From: Candidatus Woesearchaeota archaeon
Lineage (GTDB): Archaea; Nanobdellota; Nanobdellia; Woesearchaeales; JAFCFN01
Reading direction: 5' to 3'
NCBI GenBank assembly: GCA_017608625.1
Contig: JAFCFN010000001.1
Span: 19,828 to 83,827, forward strand
Length of the DNA: 64,000 bases
Each line of letters begins with the position of its first letter. The first letter of the stretch is position 1. The notes under the pieces were generated by a model. The model ran no database searches. It saw only the letters and a program-made list of their open reading frames with translations, and was not told where the DNA came from. Position numbers and translations under genes: made by a program. Shown here one piece after another: positions 16,899 through 50,175 of this stretch.

Positions 16899-18686
16899 AT
16901 GAAAAAGGTACCATGGTACCTAAAATTTTTATTTACAATATCTTTTCTTTCAAATACTCATTCTGCTAATAGTTGGAAAGATTATCAAAAATTAAACTTT
17001 GATACACACATCTTAAGCACATATTATGACCACTTTGAGAAAAATTTTAAATTAACTTATTATAAGAACCGGTTAACAGGATTGGAATCAGTTATTAATG
17101 AAAAGAAAGATCTTATTAAAAGTTATTACAAACTACCGAATCCAACAATTGAAATTGAACATTATAAAAATAAATTGTTAGAAAATCAAAGTAAAAAATT
17201 AAATAAAAAATTTTTTACATTGCTTGCTGTTTATAAATCAGAGGTTGACAAACTAAATACAATTGATAAGGAAAAGTTCAATAGGTTTTTGAAATCTACA
17301 CTTAATAAAATTGAAGATCTTAATGGCGATAAAGAAAATATTAAGAATTTGGAAGCATTTCTTTTTGAAACAAATTTAGAAGATTTAAAAAACAAAGCTA
17401 AAGAGTTTTATCTTTCTAATCCTAAATTAATACAGCACTATAAAATTGAATTATATAGGCTTCTAAAATATGAATTAACCAAGTTTATAGATTTAAAGAC
17501 AAATAAAGAATTAGATAAAGCTAAAGATACATTAGAAAATTTTTGTGATAAAAAAAAGTTTACAGATCTGAAAAATAAAGCCAAGGAGATATCAGACTAT
17601 GTTGGAAAAATCGAGTCCAATAAAAATTCAGATTATCTCAATGTCGCATGTAAACTGTTTGATATTAAGATCAAGAAAGATCCTCTAATTAAAGAAATAA
17701 AAAACAATAAGAAAGAATTAGAAAAGATTGTAAAAAGGTATGGAAAAATAGATTTACGTAATGCCTCATCTAGACTACAAAATCTGCGTGAGTCACTTAA
17801 AGACGAATGGGAACTTGAAATAAATCATAAAAACTTTTACCATTTAGTTAAACTTGTTAAAGAACAAGGCATTATTCCGGTTATTGAAATAGGGAAGAAT
17901 AAAATTCCTCTTTATTGTATCTCTGAAATTTTAGTTGCTAATGATGTTGAAAACATAAGACTAAATCCTGAAATATTAAGAGGCATAACAGAAGAGAAAA
18001 ATGTTATAAAAAAAATTAAAAACATAAACAGTTCTCTAGGCAAAGAAGTAATTTCACTTCAAAAGATAGAAAAAATAGTAAATGAAGCGTTATTTCTTCT
18101 TGCTTCTCCACAAATTAATGATAAAAATTGGAGAGATTGGGAGAGGGATGTTTGTTTCTCGAACCAATATGTTAATTGGGGTTTTGCTAATTATATAACT
18201 AGTTCTTTTTGGTATGAATTGGCTCTACCAGAATTGTTTAAAATGCGGCCTTTAGGTTATATTGGGAAGACAGACATATCTTTTAATGTATTCCCATTAG
18301 CAGGGATTGAAGGAAAAGTAAAAGGAGAGATAATTAGTGGAGGAGTTATGTTAATAAAAGATTTAGGTCTATTTACAACCAAACTCACTTTGGGTATCTC
18401 GTCAATTCAAAAAGGAAATGCTCAATTGTTTTCAGGATTTGATAAAAAGTATCTTTTAATGGATAAAGATTTACAAGGATTTAAATTTCCAAGTAGCAGC
18501 TTTGAATTTGGCGTCATTTTTCCTCATTTTACTTTTATGACTCACTTTTATCCTAAGATTAAAATTAAAGAAAAGATTTACCCAGGGATATATCCTGTTT
18601 ATAGTATTTTATTGAATATACCTCTTCAGATCTCATATAATCCACTTACACACTCTTATTCTTGTTCAGCTAGTTTTAAATTTTAG
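16899..18686 (+). CDS. Hypothetical secreted/surface protein, Lys-rich, with an aromatic beta-rich C-terminal region
   Basis: A signal-peptide-like N-terminus (LKFLFTISFLSNTHSA) is followed by 595 aa with no motif I recognise. Confidence 0.4.
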   Translation: MKKVPWYLKFLFTISFLSNTHSANSWKDYQKLNFDTHILSTYYDHFEKNFKLTYYKNRLTGLESVINEKKDLIKSYYKLPNPTIEIEHYKNKLLENQSKKLNKKFFTLLAVYKSEVDKLNTIDKEKFNRFLKSTLNKIEDLNGDKENIKNLEAFLFETNLEDLKNKAKEFYLSNPKLIQHYKIELYRLLKYELTKFIDLKTNKELDKAKDTLENFCDKKKFTDLKNKAKEISDYVGKIESNKNSDYLNVACKLFDIKIKKDPLIKEIKNNKKELEKIVKRYGKIDLRNASSRLQNLRESLKDEWELEINHKNFYHLVKLVKEQGIIPVIEIGKNKIPLYCISEILVANDVENIRLNPEILRGITEEKNVIKKIKNINSSLGKEVISLQKIEKIVNEALFLLASPQINDKNWRDWERDVCFSNQYVNWGFANYITSSFWYELALPELFKMRPLGYIGKTDISFNVFPLAGIEGKVKGEIISGGVMLIKDLGLFTTKLTLGISSIQKGNAQLFSGFDKKYLLMDKDLQGFKFPSSSFEFGVIFPHFTFMTHFYPKIKIKEKIYPGIYPVYSILLNIPLQISYNPLTHSYSCSASFKF

Positions 18687-18720: not shown

Positions 18721-19458
18721 TTGATCTATTTCTTAAAAAATTATGAGAAAATGATAAAAGTGATTATTTTTGATTTTGATGATACTTTAGAAAAATATGA
18801 CATAGCAAAACATTATGCAGAAAGGAGAATTGACAGATACTTTTCCAAAATATACGGAATTAAAAATATAGCAAAGCTATTGAGAGATATAGACTTATTC
18901 TATACAATAGAAGGAAAAACTAGAAAAGATGTTAGTTTATACAGACGAGAGCTTTGGTTTAAGGATATTTTTCATAAACTTAAAATAAAACCAAAGAAGG
19001 ATGAAATTAAAAAACTAGTAAATCTTTACTGGAACTCCATATATGAGAAAATTACTTTAATGCCAAACACAAAAAATGTTTTAAGAACACTAAAAAAGAA
19101 ATTCAAACTTGCGATTATTTCTGATTCTGATGGGAATAAAACAATAAAAACTAGAAGACTTATGAAACTAGGCATAATCAGGTTTTTCGATGTAGTTGTT
19201 ACAGGCGATGATATTAAAACAACAAAACCAGATAAAAAATTCTATTTTATGATATTTAAAAAATTAAAGGTAAGACCTTTTGAGTGTGTAATTGTAGGTG
19301 ATAAGCCAGAATACGATTTAGAAGTAGCCAAGAAACTTGGTTTAACAACAGTTTGGTTTGTTTATGGTGATTGGGCAAAACGCGAGAAAAGAAAGCATTT
19401 TAAATACGTAGACTTTAAAATAAATTCTTTGAAAGAATTGATAAAATTATTTAATTAG
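18721..19458 (+). CDS. HAD-superfamily hydrolase
   Basis: Motif I (IIFDFDDTL) and motif IV (VGDKPEYDLEVAKKLG) are present. Confidence 0.65.
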   Translation: MIYFLKNYEKMIKVIIFDFDDTLEKYDIAKHYAERRIDRYFSKIYGIKNIAKLLRDIDLFYTIEGKTRKDVSLYRRELWFKDIFHKLKIKPKKDEIKKLVNLYWNSIYEKITLMPNTKNVLRTLKKKFKLAIISDSDGNKTIKTRRLMKLGIIRFFDVVVTGDDIKTTKPDKKFYFMIFKKLKVRPFECVIVGDKPEYDLEVAKKLGLTTVWFVYGDWAKREKRKHFKYVDFKINSLKELIKLFN

Positions 19459-20534
19459 TTCAGATTGCCTTTTGTTAAATCGCCTCCAAGTAAATGTTGT
19501 CTAGTTATGGAATAATCAACTCTTTTTACTCTTTCATTAATCAAGTATTTAACAAACTCTAAAGTTCGTCTTACCCATGATTTTCCTTGATTTATATTAG
19601 CAAAGTGTTCTTTTAATTCATCAAAAGTTAATCCTTTTAAATTCGATTTTGACATTTTTTCTCCATCCTCGCCATAAAATAATGGACCTATAAGATATAT
19701 TGGAACTTTAGTGCCTCTAAGCGAATCTGTTTTATTTGCTAAGATAGTGGTTATTTTCTTAGCTTTTTCAACCTTTGACAATTCTCCTGCATGACTCTCA
19801 AAATAATCCCCTCCATATACATGAACATCTGTCTGTGGTTCTGTAACAATATCTCTTATGGAATTAATTAAATAATGAGCCGAAATAGAAATATTTCGAT
19901 CATACAAATCAAATTTATATCTTTTTTGATCACAAGCTTCATTATTACAATCTGCTTCAATTTCTATTCTATCATTTTTTCCTTTTGCTAAGACAGGAAA
20001 TGTTCGTGTAACAGTATGACATTTAGGACAAATAGGATGTATTGGAATCTTACGATTTTTACTTTCATCTCCTGTAAGTATCTTTTTGATAGTGTCTCTT
20101 TCTTTAATAAGAGTTTCAAGACAATTTCTGTACTTTACAGTTGATTGAATATCAGAAAGCCAGTTAAAATGATAATTGATTCCGATCTCTGCTTGCACCA
20201 AAGACATAAACTCTTTAACTTTTGCAGTGCTATATGCAGCAAGGTTTGGATATTCCTCTAGTGGACTTTTAATATATTTAAAGGGATAAGCTATCTTGCC
20301 TTTTGACTCACTTGGCAAATCAATGTCTAAAACAGTTATTTCTAATTCAGTTGTACTTGTGCCTAGATAGTGTGTTAGCCATGATGCTAAAAGAAGCGTG
20401 CTTATATTTCCTAAGTGAATCTGTCCAGATGGTCTAAAACCTACACTCACTTTCTTTCTGGGTTTGTTAGATAATAACTCAACTATGCTGTCTAAAGAGA
20501 AGTATACTCCTTTTGGGGTTTTTCTTCCATCCAT
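19455..20534 (-). CDS. Class I aminoacyl-tRNA synthetase catalytic core, LysRS class I-like (HxGN, KMSKS, Cys-rich insertion); apparently lacks a C-terminal anticodon-binding domain
   Basis: GFRPSGQIHLGNISTLL carries the HIGH-variant HxGN typical of LysK. A KMSKS motif (GEKMSKSNLKG) and a CPKC...C..C insertion are present. The gene is only 359 aa, against more than 500 aa for full LysRS-I. Confidence 0.55.
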   Translation of the reverse strand: MDGRKTPKGVYFSLDSIVELLSNKPRKKVSVGFRPSGQIHLGNISTLLLASWLTHYLGTSTTELEITVLDIDLPSESKGKIAYPFKYIKSPLEEYPNLAAYSTAKVKEFMSLVQAEIGINYHFNWLSDIQSTVKYRNCLETLIKERDTIKKILTGDESKNRKIPIHPICPKCHTVTRTFPVLAKGKNDRIEIEADCNNEACDQKRYKFDLYDRNISISAHYLINSIRDIVTEPQTDVHVYGGDYFESHAGELSKVEKAKKITTILANKTDSLRGTKVPIYLIGPLFYGEDGEKMSKSNLKGLTFDELKEHFANINQGKSWVRRTLEFVKYLINERVKRVDYSITRQHLLGGDLTKGNLN

Positions 20535-20666: not shown

Positions 20667-21137
20667 CTATCTTATTCTTCTTACTTTAGATACAAAATTT
20701 AATATTTTGCCTTCTTTTGCTTTTCCGCATCCTAAGAGATTATTTTTATATTTTATAAGCACAAAACCAGAGTAATTTTTTATTGTTAAATCCTGGCCAG
20801 AAAGCCATTCTTTAACTTGTTTTTCATTTATTTCAACCACATTTTTATATGCTTTTCTGCCAATCATTTGTGAACCTTCTATTGACAACCTTAACCCATC
20901 TTTCTCTAACTTCCCAAAATATAGGCCAACAGAATTTATTCTTAGTTTATCTAAATTCAAATTTTCAATTTCTTTGTTTACAATAAATATTTTCCTCTCT
21001 TTATTCTGGAGAAAAACATAATCTAAATCACCTTTAAAACCAAACTGTTTTTCAAGTAAATAAAGAATTACTTTAATTTGTTTTTTATTTAGAATTTGAA
21101 GATTCTGCATTTTTATATTAAAATTTAAATTCCCCAA
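20667..21137 (-). CDS. PUA-domain protein (Nip7-like ribosome biogenesis factor)
   Basis: The ORF lies downstream of aIF5B, as Nip7 does in many archaea, and the C-terminal half is a PUA-like beta-rich region. The call is weak. Confidence 0.4.
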   Translation of the reverse strand: MGNLNFNIKMQNLQILNKKQIKVILYLLEKQFGFKGDLDYVFLQNKERKIFIVNKEIENLNLDKLRINSVGLYFGKLEKDGLRLSIEGSQMIGRKAYKNVVEINEKQVKEWLSGQDLTIKNYSGFVLIKYKNNLLGCGKAKEGKILNFVSKVRRIR

Positions 21138-22888
21138 ATAACATTGCTTTTCCTTTTTATTTCTGCTATTTCTTTTAGGATTTCTATTTCATCTTTGTTT
21201 AAATATTTTTTAAATTGTTTTAGTTTTCTGAATTCTTCTTCAGAAATGTCTGATAATAAAATTTCTCCTTCATTGATTTGTCTACCAACTGTTGCTTCTG
21301 GGATAGCTATTGCTACTTGCTTTCCTTTTTCAGCTTCAGCTATGTTTTCTTGTTCTAACTGCATGCTTTTAATGGTTCCAATAGATTTTCCATCCTGTTT
21401 CATTAATGAAATGCCTGTTCTTGCTGTTCCAGCTAAAACCTCCACTCCAATTACAGCAGGATTACTCTGCCTAAAGACATAACCTCTGAGTATTTCTAAT
21501 TTGCAAGGTTTTGTTAGTTCAGCCAAAGCTTCTTGTTCTAATTTTGATTTCTCTTGCTCTTGCCAAAGTTCAAATTCCTCAATTAATCTGTAGATGATAT
21601 CAGATGTAATTATTTTGACTTTTTCTGGAATAGTGTCGATCTCTTTACTTAATGAAACATTAAAGCCAAGCACAACTGCTTGTAATGGATCTTTATCATA
21701 GTTTGCTTCTGCTTCTGCTATATCTTTTTTGGTTATATTGCCAATAGTTGCCTTTCTGATAGGCATATGTTTTTCTTTTAATAAGGTTATCAGTGCTTCC
21801 AAACTACCTAAAGAATCTGTTTTTACAATTATTCCTATTTTATCTGTTGCAATTAATACCTCCTTAACTATGTTTTGTATTTCTTCTTTTACCTTATCTA
21901 ATTCTTGCTCAGAACAAACTCTTATTGGCATACCTGCTGTTGCTTCATCTATTCCAGTAGCAGATATTTTAACGCCTGTTGCAGCTGCTACTTGGTCAAC
22001 TGGTTTAAACTGAGCCTTTTTAACTCTCATTTCTTCTAAAGGCATGGGTTCAAACAATGCTTTGACTTTTGTCACAATTGGTTTATTTAGACCTCCAATA
22101 ACAACAAGATCGTTTTTCTTTAGAATGCCATCATAGATTATTACATCTAGTGTTTTTCCTAAACCTTTTTCTTCTTTTACCTCAAGAATAGTCCCTTTTG
22201 CAGGTCCTTTTACTTCTATTTGTAGACTTTTTTCTAGATATTTTTGTGCAAGACCTGTTAAAACCATTAGTAATTCTGCTATACCTTGACCTGTTTTGGC
22301 TGAGCAAGGAATGATTGCTATTTGTTTTGTATAATCCTCTATTCTGTCAAATCTTTCAGAATTAAAACCTAGCTCAGAGAGTTTTCCAACTAAAGTGTAG
22401 ATTTTTTTGTCTAATTCTTCTTGGATATGTGGAAGTTGTTTGGGAATTACTTGTAATAAAGGACCTTGTTCATCTCTCCATCCAGAAATTAAGTCAATTT
22501 TATTAGCAGCTATTATAAAAGGTGTTTTATTATGTTTTAGAATTTCTATACATTCTTCTGTCTGAGGCATAAATCCTTCATTAATGTCTATGACAAGAAT
22601 AGCAATATCAGCTAAAGATCCACCCCTTTTTCTTAAATTTGTGAAAGCAGCATGGCCCGGCGTATCTATGAACAATAATCCGGGGATGGTTAAGTTAATC
22701 TTAAGCTGCTCTAGCAATTGACCACAAACTTCTTTTATTGTATTTAAAGGGATTATGCTTGCGCCTATTGCCTGAGTTATTGCTCCTGCCTCTGTTTTAA
22801 CAATAGCAGTCTTTCTAATAGAATCTAGTATAGATGTTTTTCCATGATCTACATGACCCATAAAGGTGCAAATAGGGCTTCTTATCAT
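21125..22888 (-). CDS. infB: Translation initiation factor aIF5B (IF2 homolog)
   Basis: The G-domain GHVDHGKTSILDSIR starts at the N-terminus with no bacterial-style extension, as in aIF5B (587 aa). Confidence 0.85.
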   Translation of the reverse strand: MIRSPICTFMGHVDHGKTSILDSIRKTAIVKTEAGAITQAIGASIIPLNTIKEVCGQLLEQLKINLTIPGLLFIDTPGHAAFTNLRKRGGSLADIAILVIDINEGFMPQTEECIEILKHNKTPFIIAANKIDLISGWRDEQGPLLQVIPKQLPHIQEELDKKIYTLVGKLSELGFNSERFDRIEDYTKQIAIIPCSAKTGQGIAELLMVLTGLAQKYLEKSLQIEVKGPAKGTILEVKEEKGLGKTLDVIIYDGILKKNDLVVIGGLNKPIVTKVKALFEPMPLEEMRVKKAQFKPVDQVAAATGVKISATGIDEATAGMPIRVCSEQELDKVKEEIQNIVKEVLIATDKIGIIVKTDSLGSLEALITLLKEKHMPIRKATIGNITKKDIAEAEANYDKDPLQAVVLGFNVSLSKEIDTIPEKVKIITSDIIYRLIEEFELWQEQEKSKLEQEALAELTKPCKLEILRGYVFRQSNPAVIGVEVLAGTARTGISLMKQDGKSIGTIKSMQLEQENIAEAEKGKQVAIAIPEATVGRQINEGEILLSDISEEEFRKLKQFKKYLNKDEIEILKEIAEIKRKSNVIWGI

Positions 22889-25396: not shown

Positions 25397-25589
25397 TAAT
25401 GGAACATTATGGAACAATTATGAGGTTTTTTCTTCCTTTAAAATTCAAAATAAGCAACTGTTTCATGAATAAAATATAAGTATTTACTAAGTTTATAAAC
25501 ATAATATGGCGATCAAACAAAAAGCCATGGAGGCAGCAGGAAAATCTTTGATTTTCCTTGGTCTCCAAAATACTTTTGGAGGTAATAAA

Positions 25590-26885
25590 ATGAAAAAATT
25601 GTTTAGTTTGTTTGTGGCTATGCTATTATTGCTAGGTATAGCCCCAGTAGCATTTAGCCAAGAAGAAAACATAACTAAAAATATGAATGAAACAAATACA
25701 ACAGTTACAGCAACTACTCTTATTGAAGTAAATGAGACAGAAGATGTAACTGGAGACGAAGTAGAAGATGCAGGAATAACTCCAGACCAACCATTGTTAT
25801 GGGGGATTGAAAGAGCTTTAGAGAGAATAAGATTGGCAATGACATTTGGAGCAGAGAAAAAAGCTGCATACGGATTAAAGATTGCAGAAGAAAGGTTACT
25901 AGAAGCTAGAGTAATGGCTAGAAAAAATAAATTCAAAGAAATGACCAAAGCTGAAGGAGAGTATGAAAAGATTGCAAAAAAAGTAAAAAGAAGGATCAAA
26001 GAAATAAGACACAAAGATCCAGAAAAAGAGTTGGAGCTGAAATTAAAACTTGGAAGTAAAATAGAAGCCAATGAAAAAAAGCTTGAAGATATTGAAACAG
26101 AGATTGAAGTTAAGATAAAAGGCAATTTGACAGACGAGCAAAGGGAATTAATAGATCAAATAATAGCCTCTTTTAAGAATCAAACAGAAGAGCTTGGAAT
26201 GGAGATAGAGGTAGCAGAAGGAAAAGCAAAAACAAAGATAAAAGCTAAAACAGAAAAAACAGATGAAGAGATCGAGAAATTAATTAAAGAGAAGAAAAAG
26301 CAATTAGGAATTACAAAAACAAGGTTAGAATGGGCAGAAAAAGCAATAGAGCATGCAGAAGAAAAAATTACAGAAGCTGAAAAGGAAATTAGTGAGAAGA
26401 ATGAAGAAGGAATTAATGTAAGCATTGTAGAAAGTTTTCTTGATAGAGCAAAGGAAGTACTAGAACAAGCAAAAAATGCTCTTGCTGAAGAAGAATATAG
26501 AGTAGCAAGAAAACTAGCTCACGAAGCACATAAGCTAGCTATGCATGCTAAAAGAGGTAAAAGCTTTGATGAAGAGGGTGTTGAGAAAGCAATAGAAAGA
26601 ATAGAAAAAATAACAGAAAAACTTGAGGAAAAAGAAGTAACCGGTATAAATGTTAGTAAAGTAACAGAAAAATTAGAAAAAGTAAAAGAGAGATTGGAAG
26701 AAAAACTAGAAAAAATCAAAGAAAAGCAGGAAGAGGATAAGGAAGAGGAAGAAGAAGTGGAATGCACTAGTGATGAAGACTGCGATGAAGATGAGAAATG
26801 TGTAGAAGGCGAGTGTGAGAAAGTAAAGGAAGATAAGGAAGTAGAAATAGAAGTTGAGGTAGAAAAAGGAGCAAAAGAAGATTAA
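25590..26885 (+). CDS. Secreted Glu/Lys-rich coiled-coil protein with a C-terminal Cys/acidic cluster
   Basis: The internal Met (MKKLFSLFVAMLLLLGIAPVAFSQE) gives a signal peptide and is preceded by a GGAGGT SD. The track ORF (25506) starts earlier. The C-terminus reads CTSDEDCDEDEKCVEGECEK. Confidence 0.45.
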   Translation: MKKLFSLFVAMLLLLGIAPVAFSQEENITKNMNETNTTVTATTLIEVNETEDVTGDEVEDAGITPDQPLLWGIERALERIRLAMTFGAEKKAAYGLKIAEERLLEARVMARKNKFKEMTKAEGEYEKIAKKVKRRIKEIRHKDPEKELELKLKLGSKIEANEKKLEDIETEIEVKIKGNLTDEQRELIDQIIASFKNQTEELGMEIEVAEGKAKTKIKAKTEKTDEEIEKLIKEKKKQLGITKTRLEWAEKAIEHAEEKITEAEKEISEKNEEGINVSIVESFLDRAKEVLEQAKNALAEEEYRVARKLAHEAHKLAMHAKRGKSFDEEGVEKAIERIEKITEKLEEKEVTGINVSKVTEKLEKVKERLEEKLEKIKEKQEEDKEEEEEVECTSDEDCDEDEKCVEGECEKVKEDKEVEIEVEVEKGAKED

Positions 26886-26949: not shown

Positions 26950-27297
26950 GTGAGAGAGGGTGATATGATGGTAAGTTTTGCTGAATGGGAAAAGCTAGAT
27001 TTGAAGATAGGTACAATAAAAGCTGTCAAACAGCACCCAAATGCTGATAAACTTTATGTTTTGTTGATAGAGATGGGTGAAGGAGAACAAGATAGAGAAT
27101 TAGTTGCCGGATTAAAAGAGCATTACTCTGAAGATGAGTTGATAGGTAAAAAAGTAATTGTTCTTGCAAATTTAGAACCAAAGATAGTAAGAGGAATTAC
27201 TTCAGAGGGCATGGTGTTGGCAGCAGATGACGGGACAAATCCTATTGCTTTGCTAACTGTTGACAGAGATGTCAATGATGGAGCAAAGGTAAGGTGA
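26950..27297 (+). CDS. tRNA-binding domain protein (Trbp111/CsaA/MetRS C-terminal-like OB fold)
   Basis: The sequence WEKLDLKIGTIKAVKQHPNADKLYVLLIEMGEG...IVLANLEPKIVRGITSEGMVLAA fits that domain. Confidence 0.7.
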   Translation: MREGDMMVSFAEWEKLDLKIGTIKAVKQHPNADKLYVLLIEMGEGEQDRELVAGLKEHYSEDELIGKKVIVLANLEPKIVRGITSEGMVLAADDGTNPIALLTVDRDVNDGAKVR

Positions 27298-28457
27298 ATG
27301 ATACTGTTTTAATTTTGGGCATAGATCCTGGTACAACTTTGGGATGTGCTATTTTGGATACAGATGGCAATCTAGTAAAGTTATTTTCTTCAAAACAATT
27401 TGGTATTTCTTCGTTGATTTCAGTGGTAGCAGATAGTGGAAAACCTTTGATCATAGCTAGCGATAAAAAAAGAACTCCAAGTTTGATTAAAAATATTTCT
27501 TCAGCTTTTGGAGCAAGAATAATAGCACCTCCTCAAGATCTAACAATAAAAGAGAAGAATTCTCTAACAACTGGTTTTAATCCAAAAAATGATCATGAAA
27601 GAGATGCTCTTGCAGCAGCTTTATTTGGTTATAAAAAAATCAGACCTTTGCTTAAAAAAATAACTTTATTTGTTAAGGAAAATAAAAAAGAAGATATTAA
27701 AGATAGGTTAATAGAAATTGTAGTAAAGAAACAGATCAGCATTAAGAAAGCTGCAAAACTACTCGAGCCTTCTGAAAAGAAAATAAAAATTGAGAAGGAA
27801 ATTATACAACCAAAACAAAGAAATCCTAATTTGATTTACACTCGACTTAGAACAGCATTAAAGGATATAAGTTTACTTAGAAGGTATAATCAAAGATTAA
27901 AGAATAAAATAAAAAAATTAAAAGAAAAAAATAAAGCGTTGTTGAACAAAACCAGAATATTGGTTTCTGATACAAAACTGACTAAGATGCTTGAATTCAA
28001 AGAGAAGAGAATACTATTTCTTGATCAAGAATTAAAGAAGAAGGATAGAGAAATCAAAATAAAAGAAGAGGAAATAGCAAAATTGAATAAATTTTTATCT
28101 AAACTGAATGAAAATTTTGTTGCTAAGAAATTAATTAATTTAAGTTGGGCAGAATTTAAGTTAAAACATAATTTGTTGAATATTCAGGAAAGTGACATAC
28201 TATTGGTACATGACCCAAATCAGTATAGTAATAAAGTTGTTGAGAAACTAAAAGACAAAATAAAATTTATTATTGTTAATAAAGATCTTAACTCTAAACT
28301 TTCATTACCCTTTGTTTTTATTCCTGCTAAAAATTTAAGGATAGAAGAAAATAAATATTTTGCTTTGGTTAATAAGGACGATTTTAATAAAGAGAAAGGT
28401 AGAATTAATTTGCTATTTGAAATTATAGAAAGTTATAAAAAGAAAAGAAGGAGCTAG
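27294..28457 (+). CDS. RNase H-fold (RuvC/YqgF-like) nuclease domain followed by a coiled-coil region (DUF460-like)
   Basis: The N-terminus LILGIDPGTTLGCAILDTDGNLVKL resembles the RuvC/YqgF motif I. The middle has coiled-coil heptads (LKNKIKKLKEKNKALLNK). Confidence 0.45.
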   Translation: MNDTVLILGIDPGTTLGCAILDTDGNLVKLFSSKQFGISSLISVVADSGKPLIIASDKKRTPSLIKNISSAFGARIIAPPQDLTIKEKNSLTTGFNPKNDHERDALAAALFGYKKIRPLLKKITLFVKENKKEDIKDRLIEIVVKKQISIKKAAKLLEPSEKKIKIEKEIIQPKQRNPNLIYTRLRTALKDISLLRRYNQRLKNKIKKLKEKNKALLNKTRILVSDTKLTKMLEFKEKRILFLDQELKKKDREIKIKEEEIAKLNKFLSKLNENFVAKKLINLSWAEFKLKHNLLNIQESDILLVHDPNQYSNKVVEKLKDKIKFIIVNKDLNSKLSLPFVFIPAKNLRIEENKYFALVNKDDFNKEKGRINLLFEIIESYKKKRRS

Positions 28458-48408: not shown

Positions 48409-50175
48409 ATGATAACAGCAAAGGAATTGAAACAGAAGTATTTTGAATTTTTTAAGAGCAAAGGCCATGCCTTGATTAGTTCTGCTTCTTTGATTCCGGA
48501 GCATGATCCGACTGTTTTGTTTACAACAGCTGGAATGCATCCTTTAGTTCCATTTTTAATGGGTCAGCCTCATCCTTTAGGCAAGAGATTGGTAGATGTT
48601 CAGAAATGCATTAGAACAGGAGATATTGATGCAGTAGGAGATGGTATGCATTTAACTTTTTTTGAGATGCTTGGCAATTGGTCATTAGGAGATTATTTCA
48701 AGAAAGAGGCAATAGAATGGAGTTTTGAGTTTTTGACTAAATGGCTTGGTTTTAATTCAGATAAAATATCTGTTACAGTGTTTGCAGGAGATAAGGATGC
48801 TCCTAGAGACGAGGAATCAGCAAGCATATGGAAATCTTTGGGAATTCCGGAAGAAAGGATTTATTATTTGCCAAAAGAGGATAATTGGTGGGGTCCAGCA
48901 GGAAAGACTGGTCCTTGTGGACCTTGTACAGAAATGTTTATTGATACAGGTAAGAGAAAATGTTCTCCAGAATGCAGGCCTGGATGTAACTGTGGAAAAT
49001 ATTTTGAGATATGGAATGATGTTTTTATGGAGTATAATAAAAAGGAAGATGGGAGTTATGAAAAATTAAAACAAAGAAATGTTGATACCGGAATGGGGGT
49101 AGAGAGAACAGTTGCAATGATAAATGGTTATGATTCTGTTTATGAAACAGACGTTTTTAAACCTATCATTGATAAGATAAAAGAGTTAGCAAAGGTTGAT
49201 AATTTTACTCATGAACAAATAAGAAGTGTGAGAATAATAGCTGATCATATGAAGGCAGCTACTTTTATTTTAGGTGATGAAAGAGGTGTTACACCATCTA
49301 ACCTAGACCAAGGTTATATTTTAAGAAGATTCATTAGAAGAAGCATAAGACATGGAAGATTATTGGGAATTGAATCAGATCTTTGCAGACCAATTGCCAA
49401 GGTTGTTATTGAATTATACAAAGATGGCTATCCTGAACTGAAAGAAAAAGAGAAATTCGTAATGGATGAATTACTAAAAGAAGAGGAAAGATTTAGACAC
49501 ACTTTAGAAAGAGGATTAAAAGAGTTTGAGAAGATTTCAAGAAAGGGAGATATCTCAGGAAAAGATGCATTTTTGTTATTTCAAAGCTATGGATTTCCAT
49601 TTGAGATTGTGAGAGAGCTTGCTCATGAAAAAGGTATTAAAGTAGATGAAGAAGGATTTAATGCAGAGTATAAGAAGCACCAAGAATTATCAAGAAAAGG
49701 TGCTGAAAAAAGATTTAAAGGAGGTTTATCAGAGGCTTCTGCTATAACAGCAAAACTTCATACCGCAACTCACCTTCTTGGAGAGGCATTGAGAAGAGTT
49801 CTTGGAAGTAAGGATATAAAACAAAAAGGATCTAATATTACTCCAGAAAGGTTAAGGTATGATTTTAATTTTGATAGAAAATTAACACCGGAGGAGATCA
49901 AAAAAGTAGAGGATTTGGTGAATGAAAAAATAAAAGAGGGCTTAGATGTAATAAGAGAAGAGATACCTTTGGAAGAAGCAATTAAATCAGGAGCACAGGC
50001 AGAGTTTGGAGCAAAATATCCTCCAAGGGTTTTTGTGTATTCTATAGGAGATTTTTCAAAAGAGATTTGCATGGGTCCTCATGTCACTAATACAAAAGAA
50101 CTAGGACATTTCAAAATAATAAAAGAAGAATCAGTTGCAGCTGGGATCAGGAGAATCAAAGCTATTTTAGAGTAA
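48409..50175 (+). CDS. alaS: Alanyl-tRNA synthetase, bacterial-type, compact (catalytic, tRNA-recognition and editing domains; no C-Ala domain)
   Basis: The segments FFKSKGHALISSASLIPEHDPTVLFTTAGM, FFEMLGNWSLGDYFK, TGPCGPCTE and WNDVFMEY are close to E. coli AlaRS. The editing-domain HxxxH (HTATHLL) and CxxxH (CMGPHV) are present. The gene is 588 aa. Confidence 0.8.
   Translation: MITAKELKQKYFEFFKSKGHALISSASLIPEHDPTVLFTTAGMHPLVPFLMGQPHPLGKRLVDVQKCIRTGDIDAVGDGMHLTFFEMLGNWSLGDYFKKEAIEWSFEFLTKWLGFNSDKISVTVFAGDKDAPRDEESASIWKSLGIPEERIYYLPKEDNWWGPAGKTGPCGPCTEMFIDTGKRKCSPECRPGCNCGKYFEIWNDVFMEYNKKEDGSYEKLKQRNVDTGMGVERTVAMINGYDSVYETDVFKPIIDKIKELAKVDNFTHEQIRSVRIIADHMKAATFILGDERGVTPSNLDQGYILRRFIRRSIRHGRLLGIESDLCRPIAKVVIELYKDGYPELKEKEKFVMDELLKEEERFRHTLERGLKEFEKISRKGDISGKDAFLLFQSYGFPFEIVRELAHEKGIKVDEEGFNAEYKKHQELSRKGAEKRFKGGLSEASAITAKLHTATHLLGEALRRVLGSKDIKQKGSNITPERLRYDFNFDRKLTPEEIKKVEDLVNEKIKEGLDVIREEIPLEEAIKSGAQAEFGAKYPPRVFVYSIGDFSKEICMGPHVTNTKELGHFKIIKEESVAAGIRRIKAILE

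Follow-up and report, generated by a model that had tools for sequence, protein, structure and literature searches.

What remains of an aminoacyl-tRNA synthetase when its gene stops shortly after the KMSKS loop, and what might such a protein still do? The question is raised by a gene on contig JAFCFN010000001.1 of a Candidatus Woesearchaeota archaeon, within a stretch of 64,000 nucleotides (64 kb) that was analysed as a whole and is called the window here. The window is archaeal, with about 30% G+C, and its genes include those for aIF5B, EF-1beta, aRF1, a histone, aIF5A and L37ae. At 19455..20534 on the minus strand it carries a complete open reading frame (ORF) that starts with ATG and translates into 359 amino acids followed by a stop. 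The product is a catalytic core of the class I lysyl-tRNA synthetase (LysRS-I) type, with its ancestry in the lineage of class I LysRS; judged by its sequence it is not a canonical LysRS, and it is probably not the ordinary lysine-charging enzyme of the cell. The reading favoured here, to which about an even chance is given, is that of an accessory, tRNA-directed paralogue of GluQRS-like design, with no amino acid assigned to it. A preliminary description of the gene had proposed a LysRS-I-like catalytic core that lacks the anticodon-binding domain, and this is borne out by Pfam, hhalign, Foldseek and structure comparison. The parts of the gene are these:

19455..20534, minus strand: stand-alone LysRS-I-type class I catalytic core (complete ORF; profile and fold comparison)
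20406..20432, minus strand: HIGH-type signature PSGQIHLGN, residues 35-43 (translation)
20313..20330, minus strand: LDIDLP, residues 69-74, with D70 and D72 conserved (family alignment)
19932..20030, minus strand: four-cysteine knuckle CPKC...CNNEAC, C169-x2-C172 ... C196-x4-C201, in the connective-peptide insertion (translation)
19851..19877, minus strand: HYLINSIRD helix, residues 220-228 (family alignment)
19803..19823, minus strand: HVYGGDY, residues 238-244, counterpart of canonical E-P-F-G-K-D-H (translation, alignment)
19644..19658, minus strand: KMSKS loop, residues 293-297, with K296 invariant in the family (translation)
19458..19643, minus strand: C-terminal tail, 62 residues after KMSKS, with three modelled helices (AlphaFold2 model)

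The PSGQIHLGN signature, the cysteine-rich connective-peptide insertion and the intact KMSKS had all been pointed out in the preliminary description, and each is present in the translation; the protein was also said to end about 60 residues past KMSKS, and the count is 62. The catalytic elements and the four-cysteine knuckle are conserved over 40 aligned members of the protein family to which the ORF belongs. In the HIGH region, G32, P35, G37, H40 and G42 vary little or not at all within the family, and they are found in canonical LysRS-I as well. D72 is the aligned counterpart of the invariant canonical D65 and presumably contacts the alpha-amino group of the substrate. The knuckle cysteines are kept in at least 90% of the family, C169, C172 and C196 aligning with canonical C169, C172 and C195. 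The Asp of canonical E-P-F-G-K-D-H is retained within HVYGGDY, where by analogy with other class I enzymes it may touch the ribose of ATP.

The ancestry of the core is indicated by profile and fold alike. The Pfam class I LysRS family PF01921 matches at 48 bits against a gathering cut-off of 27, over residues 24-196 only. Alignment of the 40-member family with 21 canonical LysRS-I by hhalign gives a probability of 99.5% and an E value of 1e-22, with family columns 20-331 paired to canonical columns 21-320 of 531. An AlphaFold2 model built from the family alignment (predicted local distance difference test, pLDDT, 91.5; predicted template-modelling score, pTM, 0.91) finds as its top Foldseek match 1IRX, the class I LysRS of P. 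horikoshii, at 1e-12, followed by GluRS and TyrRS at 3e-7 or worse. Structure comparison of the model gave the following scores:

1IRX (288 residues aligned): 24.0
BshC: 19.1
CysRS: 16.4
GlnRS: 15.8
GluRS: 14.5
MshC: 14.4
GluQRS: 13.6
TrpRS and TyrRS: about 13

Models for TyrRS, TrpRS and GluQRS reach only 11-20 bits against cut-offs of 114-478 (for GluQRS, 17-19 bits against 250-277), and both the zinc-knuckle insertion and the segment between beta-2 and this insertion are of the LysRS-I type. The profile, fold and structure matches thus identify a LysRS-I-type core and refute a mis-assigned TyrRS or TrpRS, an option that the preliminary description had kept. What the protein has in common with LysRS-I (PF01921 / TIGR00467; 1IRX) is the Rossmann core, the HxGN form of HIGH, the segment that follows beta-2, the four-cysteine knuckle, the G-x-D element and KMSKS. 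According to published work, activation by class I LysRS requires tRNA. Unlike LysRS-I it ends at about canonical residue 325 of some 530, its tail stopping where the canonical IDFD motif stands (about residue 320-325 of 531). The helical anticodon-binding domain of about 200 residues (ABD-EK / PF19269) is absent from the 359-amino-acid protein, as the structural model and the alignment agree.

The shortness of the protein is real. The identical 359-amino-acid sequence occurs on 5 contigs that belong to independent JGI and NCBI assemblies, and when 1.84 billion cluster representatives were searched exhaustively with phmmer, 98 homologues were obtained at E<1e-3, 47 of them at E<1e-10. Nearly all are 300-390 amino acids long (median 331 for the 93 homologues shorter than 480). 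These two observations, the same protein on five contigs and the homologue median, make shortness a trait of the family, and the ORF, previously treated as a one-off, is a member of a family with 98 homologue clusters. Word-indexed searches came back nearly empty, with 2 matches for the single protein and 9 for a 40-sequence profile, and the family is seen only by exhaustive search. As regards a hidden C-terminal domain, a profile hidden Markov model (HMM) of this domain, made from the 21 canonical class I LysRS, was queried against six-frame, stop-to-stop ORFs; it recovered three control LysRS genes at E values of 7e-59 to 1e-49 and had no match in any frame of the window or of the 21 family loci, which together span about 330 kb. 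This result rules out both a frameshift, which the preliminary description had considered and which is refuted here as the cause of the missing domain, and a split partner nearby. The same description had found no downstream ORF that supplies the domain, which agrees with the empty six-frame search and with the identity of the next gene, that of a HAD-family hydrolase.

The protein departs from canonical LysRS in most of what makes a LysRS specific. It scores 38.1 bits against a cut-off of 147.55 with the LysRS equivalog TIGR00467, and 31.8 bits against 648 with NF001968. Within canonical residues 1-329, 68 positions show a conservation of at least 90% in canonical LysRS-I; at 12 of these the canonical residue is still the family majority, or at up to about 17 in a motif-consistent register. 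The latter alignment was used for the second half of the protein because a local re-run of hhalign moved the register by 2 residues near GGDY and KMSKS. The surviving positions are generic ones: the HIGH region, one Asp of the beta-2 motif, three knuckle cysteines, G-x-D and KMSKS. Replacements that were read from the alignment are:

canonical T25: R34 in the short family
canonical E37: T46 in the short family
canonical W212: I217 in the short family
canonical E228: H238 in the short family
canonical K232: G242 in the short family
canonical H234: Y244 in the short family
canonical Y262: G283 in the short family

E37, W212, H234 and Y262 are invariant in the 21 canonical LysRS-I, and each is replaced in the short protein. 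E228 and K232 are canonical invariants too. At consistent numbering offsets E37, W212, H234 and Y262 equate to E41, W218, H240 and Y268 of the P. horikoshii enzyme, which we take to be its lysine pocket. The short family has conserved residues of its own, namely R227 and D228 of the D-P-I-R-D helix, H238 and Y244. This helix belongs to a family-specific motif, (V)HY-L-x-D-P-I-R-D, which stands where canonical LysRS-I has W-R-x-x-W-P-A-x-W, and in which at least 90% of the members have R227 and D228 is invariant. Since the amino-acid pocket appears remodelled, lysine is not assured as the substrate; loss of the acidic equivalent of E37 together with the gain of conserved Arg residues makes it doubtful. 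A comparison of charge and isoelectric point was uninformative because composition dominates it.

Most of the LysRS-specific invariant residues are replaced in the short family. It also forms a clade of its own. In neighbour-joining analysis of the shared core it stands apart from canonical LysRS-I (archaeal, candidate phyla radiation (CPR)-like bacterial and Pacearchaeota sequences) in 200 of 200 bootstraps, and its mean internal distance in that analysis is 1.90, where canonical sequences average 0.93 among themselves; its rate of evolution is about double. Divergence is rapid in comparison with other genes of the same genome pairs: the short protein is 30% identical where aIF5B is 59% identical, and 42-45% identical where GatE is 55-64% identical.

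The distribution of the family was surveyed with two family motifs over 185,579 genomes, one per GTDB R232 species. They occur at 20 loci (loci are given L numbers and individual proteins P numbers below), and for 15 of these the label is Nanoarchaeia, Woesearchaeota, Pacearchaeota or Aenigmatarchaeota. Since these motifs recognise 31 of the 98 known members, the true count is probably a few dozen species. Members also lie on the large contigs JAQUOT010000001.1 (536 kb), CAZNJU010000001.1 (760 kb) and Ga0374055_0000081 (512 kb). The remaining five loci carry the labels 'Methanosarcinales' (L010, L019, L020, L021) or 'Campylobacterales' (L014), and these labels look wrong. L014 has its gene order in common with the Aenigmatarchaeota locus L013 and is for this reason taken as mis-binned; the aIF5B proteins of L010 and L021 are 58-60% identical to that of the window, and L010 also has the neighbouring gene for a PUA-domain protein that is described below. 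No family member was found in the viral contigs scanned. The family is rare, and it was encountered solely on archaeal contigs of the DPANN type.

On contigs of the Pacearchaeota type, a full-length LysRS-I is a common find. One such protein, P0223, has 494 amino acids, is annotated as 'lysine--tRNA ligase [Candidatus Pacearchaeota archaeon]' and lies in archaeal context. JGI metagenomes contain at least 197 relatives of it; the best 80 of the 197 are nearly all 60-72% identical to it, on contigs that average 30% G+C. None of these best 80 comes from the samples of the window or has a short family member with it, and the sole additional match is a TrpRS. A full-length LysRS from the window's own population was also sought with a three-sequence canonical LysRS-I profile, whose 120 matches listed are mainly from Thermoplasmatota, and by a synteny-gap test that compared the neighbours of canonical LysRS genes with the window and gave nothing consistent. 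The P0092/P0137/P0158 group was rejected as bacterial, with SecA, MreB and PBP as its neighbours. According to a recent preprint in which 1,288 genomes, the high-quality metagenome-assembled genomes of Nanobdellota in GTDB R232, serve as a calibration pool, aminoacyl-tRNA synthetases are within the single-copy core of the phylum.

The genes that surround the short gene belong largely to translation. In the window they are:

18721..19458, plus strand: HAD-family hydrolase, convergent, overlapping the stop codon of the ORF by 4 nucleotides; not the missing synthetase domain (ORF and domain match)
20667..21137, minus strand: 156-amino-acid protein with a C-terminal PUA RNA-binding domain (PF13636), the upstream neighbour (Pfam)
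21125..22888, minus strand: aIF5B, the translation initiation GTPase, first in the same-strand string (domain match)

The PUA-protein gene overlaps the aIF5B gene by 13 nucleotides. The same-strand order of aIF5B, PUA protein and, as last gene, the short synthetase-like gene is present in the window, in L006 and in L010, and at L021 the aIF5B gene likewise adjoins the short gene. In five other loci it is gatE, the gene for a subunit of the Glu-tRNA(Gln) amidotransferase, that follows, 37-68 nucleotides downstream of the short gene:

L004, 7123-8568: gatE
L005, 4400-5863: gatE
L009, 11016-12470: gatE
L012, 1158-2708: gatE
L016, 648-2129: gatE

The GatE proteins of L004 and L009 score 490-518 bits with NCBIfam against a cut-off of 456. 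GatE beside the short gene has about 481-516 amino acids and no match to the GAD insertion domain (Pfam; L004, L009, L012 and L016), the GatE of L005 being assigned to this short group by BLAST only; the distant locus L114 has a normal GatE of 591 amino acids with the GAD domain. At L008 a true GatB takes the place of gatE, and the family member there is 72% identical to that of L005. GatD and ProRS lie directly upstream at L004, GatB and GatD are upstream at L007, and a non-discriminating AspRS is downstream at L005. L009 has a LeuRS upstream and a bacterial-type AspRS downstream. A distant member, P0219, adjoins Pelota and is 6.8 kb from GatD-GatE. Besides the five gatE loci and L008, two loci have gatD, gatB or gatE no more than 7 kb away. 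At L011 the short gene comes after Rpb3-L13-S9. The tie to tRNA-handling genes recurs in several distinct arrangements despite inherited synteny.

The LeuRS of L009 (6094-8985, minus strand; 963 amino acids) is itself unusual, having a NUDIX hydrolase domain (PF00293, residues 374-491) directly after its editing domain.

The favoured reading of these observations, that of an accessory, tRNA-directed paralogue, borrows its design and not its family membership from GluQRS/YadB, which is likewise a class I core of about 300 residues with a zinc site and without an anticodon-binding domain. GluQRS is bacterial and requires queuosine; it activates an amino acid and attaches it to a tRNA nucleoside, and does not directly serve translation. 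It derives from GluRS and not from LysRS-I, and queuosine is not known in archaea. By analogy to GluQRS, the short core would bind ATP with its HIGH-type, GGD and KMSKS elements, all of which are retained, and would adenylate an amino acid, which might then be passed to an RNA acceptor held by the zinc-knuckle insertion. That acceptor would most likely be tRNA, a view to which the retained acceptor-binding insertion and the translational context lead, and the target of transfer could be either the tRNA 3' end or a modified nucleoside. Specificity for the acceptor would have to arise without reading of the anticodon, possibly with the help of a partner, for which GatE or GatB, both of which bind tRNA, is a candidate. 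The protein would be, we infer, catalytically active, accessory, directed to tRNA and perhaps in partnership with the amidotransferase.

It is important to emphasize what leads to this choice. The preliminary description had offered, besides a mis-assigned synthetase, a genuine minimal LysRS and a paralogue with a non-canonical role; the former is weakened and the latter fits best, on account of the remodelled pocket, the scores below cut-off, the deep split from canonical LysRS-I, the fast evolution and rarity of the family, and the occurrence of full-length LysRS-I in the phylum. Several points nevertheless weigh against the favoured reading. The pocket roles of the four P. horikoshii residues are those reportedly given in the 1IRX paper, and a literature search for them gave nothing usable; what the alignment establishes is their invariance in canonical LysRS-I. 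Position 34 is Arg in the close subgroup and variable in distant members, so that the substrate may differ inside the family. Distant members stand in unrelated contexts, the linkage to gatE/gatB owes something to inherited synteny and extends to only about one third of the loci, and no canonical LysRS is present in the approximately 85 kb of this genome that the analysis covered.

The linkage to gatE and gatB does raise the speculative idea of glutamate on tRNA(Gln). In such a scheme the LysRS-I-derived core would have switched its amino acid, plausibly to glutamate, and would dock on GatE or GatB to load tRNA(Gln) in a transamidosome-like complex. This more specific proposal is considered quite improbable; were it true, a class I LysRS-derived enzyme would be dedicated to the indirect Gln-tRNA pathway.

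A different use of the same chemistry would be the ligation of an amino acid to an acceptor other than tRNA. MshC/BshC and EpmA/PoxA would be the precedents, and the acceptor could be either a small molecule or a protein, for example a polyamine or aIF5A. The distant member P0083 (L111, 1244-2713) is fused at its C-terminus to an AdoMet decarboxylase (PF02675, 68 bits), a gene for an AdoMet decarboxylase-spermidine synthase fusion follows gatE at L016 (2129-3199), distant members occur in non-translational contexts, the aIF5A gene is about 7 kb away in the window, and BshC is among the structural matches. Such a role is nonetheless unlikely for the close subgroup, including the window ORF, which is found consistently amid tRNA and translation genes and strictly retains the zinc knuckle of the acceptor-helix-binding insertion; the polyamine links amount to one remote fusion and one neighbour, and aIF5A is adjacent in no locus. 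Of the model systems, EpmA/PoxA/GenX, a paralogue of class II LysRS, is alike in having a LysRS-derived catalytic domain, a lost anticodon domain and a non-canonical job related to translation, but its class II fold is unrelated to that of the short protein and its acceptor is the protein EF-P. The Cys ligases of low-molecular-weight thiols, BshC and MshC, which have a class I synthetase fold, are only 7-13% identical and belong to bacterial pathways, and no bacillithiol or mycothiol genes were found in the neighbourhoods examined. The gene for P0083 adjoins genes for an AlaDH/PNT-type dehydrogenase and a methyltransferase-domain protein.

Could the short protein instead be the sole, minimal housekeeping LysRS, charging tRNA(Lys) either without reading the anticodon or with a helper in trans? 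Its closest relative by both sequence and fold is LysRS-I, its catalytic motifs are intact, its gene lies among essential translation genes, and the 85 kb lacking a canonical LysRS would be in keeping with it. Reduced and split synthetases are also known in DPANN genomes, and the window has a short-form AlaRS in addition. A stand-alone Trbp111-like protein of the PF01588 family in the window could serve as the trans tRNA-binding helper of a domain-poor synthetase. This possibility, too, is regarded as doubtful: residues invariant in canonical LysRS are replaced, with only 12-17 of the 68 conserved positions kept; the equivalog scores are far under their cut-offs; the family is rare and of patchy occurrence, whereas the phylum commonly has a conserved full-length LysRS-I; and the protein evolves much faster than the neighbouring translation genes, which would be unusual for a sole essential synthetase. 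The AlaRS just mentioned (48409-50175, plus strand; 588 amino acids) matches the short form NF002436/PRK01584 at 911 bits (cut-off 529) and fails the archaeal-type model TIGR03683, at 259 bits against 745. The PF01588 gene (26950-27297, plus strand; 115 amino acids) has a DUF460 gene (27294-28457, plus strand) directly downstream of it.

The split synthetase genes documented in DPANN archaea suggest another arrangement, in which the anticodon-binding domain of a LysRS would be encoded separately and the halves would assemble as in the split synthetases of Nanoarchaeum. This is very improbable here, there being no stand-alone C-terminal domain among the six-frame ORFs of the window and the 21 loci, and the divergence of the catalytic half from LysRS-I being much greater than would be expected after a recent split. 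Least credible of all is a mis-assigned TyrRS or TrpRS, favoured by weak local similarity of the HIGH region to archaeal TyrRS but opposed by model scores far below cut-off and by a LysRS-I-type zinc-knuckle insertion and preceding motif, or else a decaying, non-functional synthetase remnant, against which stand 98 homologue clusters with intact frames and conserved catalytic motifs.

Synthetase paralogues without an anticodon domain are known to have given rise to new biochemistry, as GluQRS, EpmA, MshC and HisZ attest. The type of object is therefore well known, and it is this lineage that appears new: a literature search found no description of the short LysRS-like family, whose members are nameless or 'hypothetical protein' in public sources. 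The LysRS paralogues listed in the reviews and surveys consulted (LysU, PoxA and LysX) are all derived from class II, and in one survey of more than 2,500 genomes just one case of a class I paralogue is recorded. The anticodon domain of LysRS-I is common to GluRS, whereas the catalytic domain is not, according to published work. A lineage that consists of the catalytic domain only bears on the debated origin of LysRS-I, as either a secondary loss or a relic that predates the joining of the domains. Should the short protein prove to be the true sole LysRS of some DPANN cells, or the partner of an amidotransferase, it would represent a new way of maintaining the genetic code in ultra-small genomes.

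Elsewhere in the 64-kb window, ARAGORN found no tRNA genes and Rfam had no family at gathering score. Two further ORFs on the plus strand are without a Pfam or NCBIfam match: one of 459 amino acids at 25506-26885, and one of 595 amino acids at 16899-18686 that has a hydrophobic, signal-like start.

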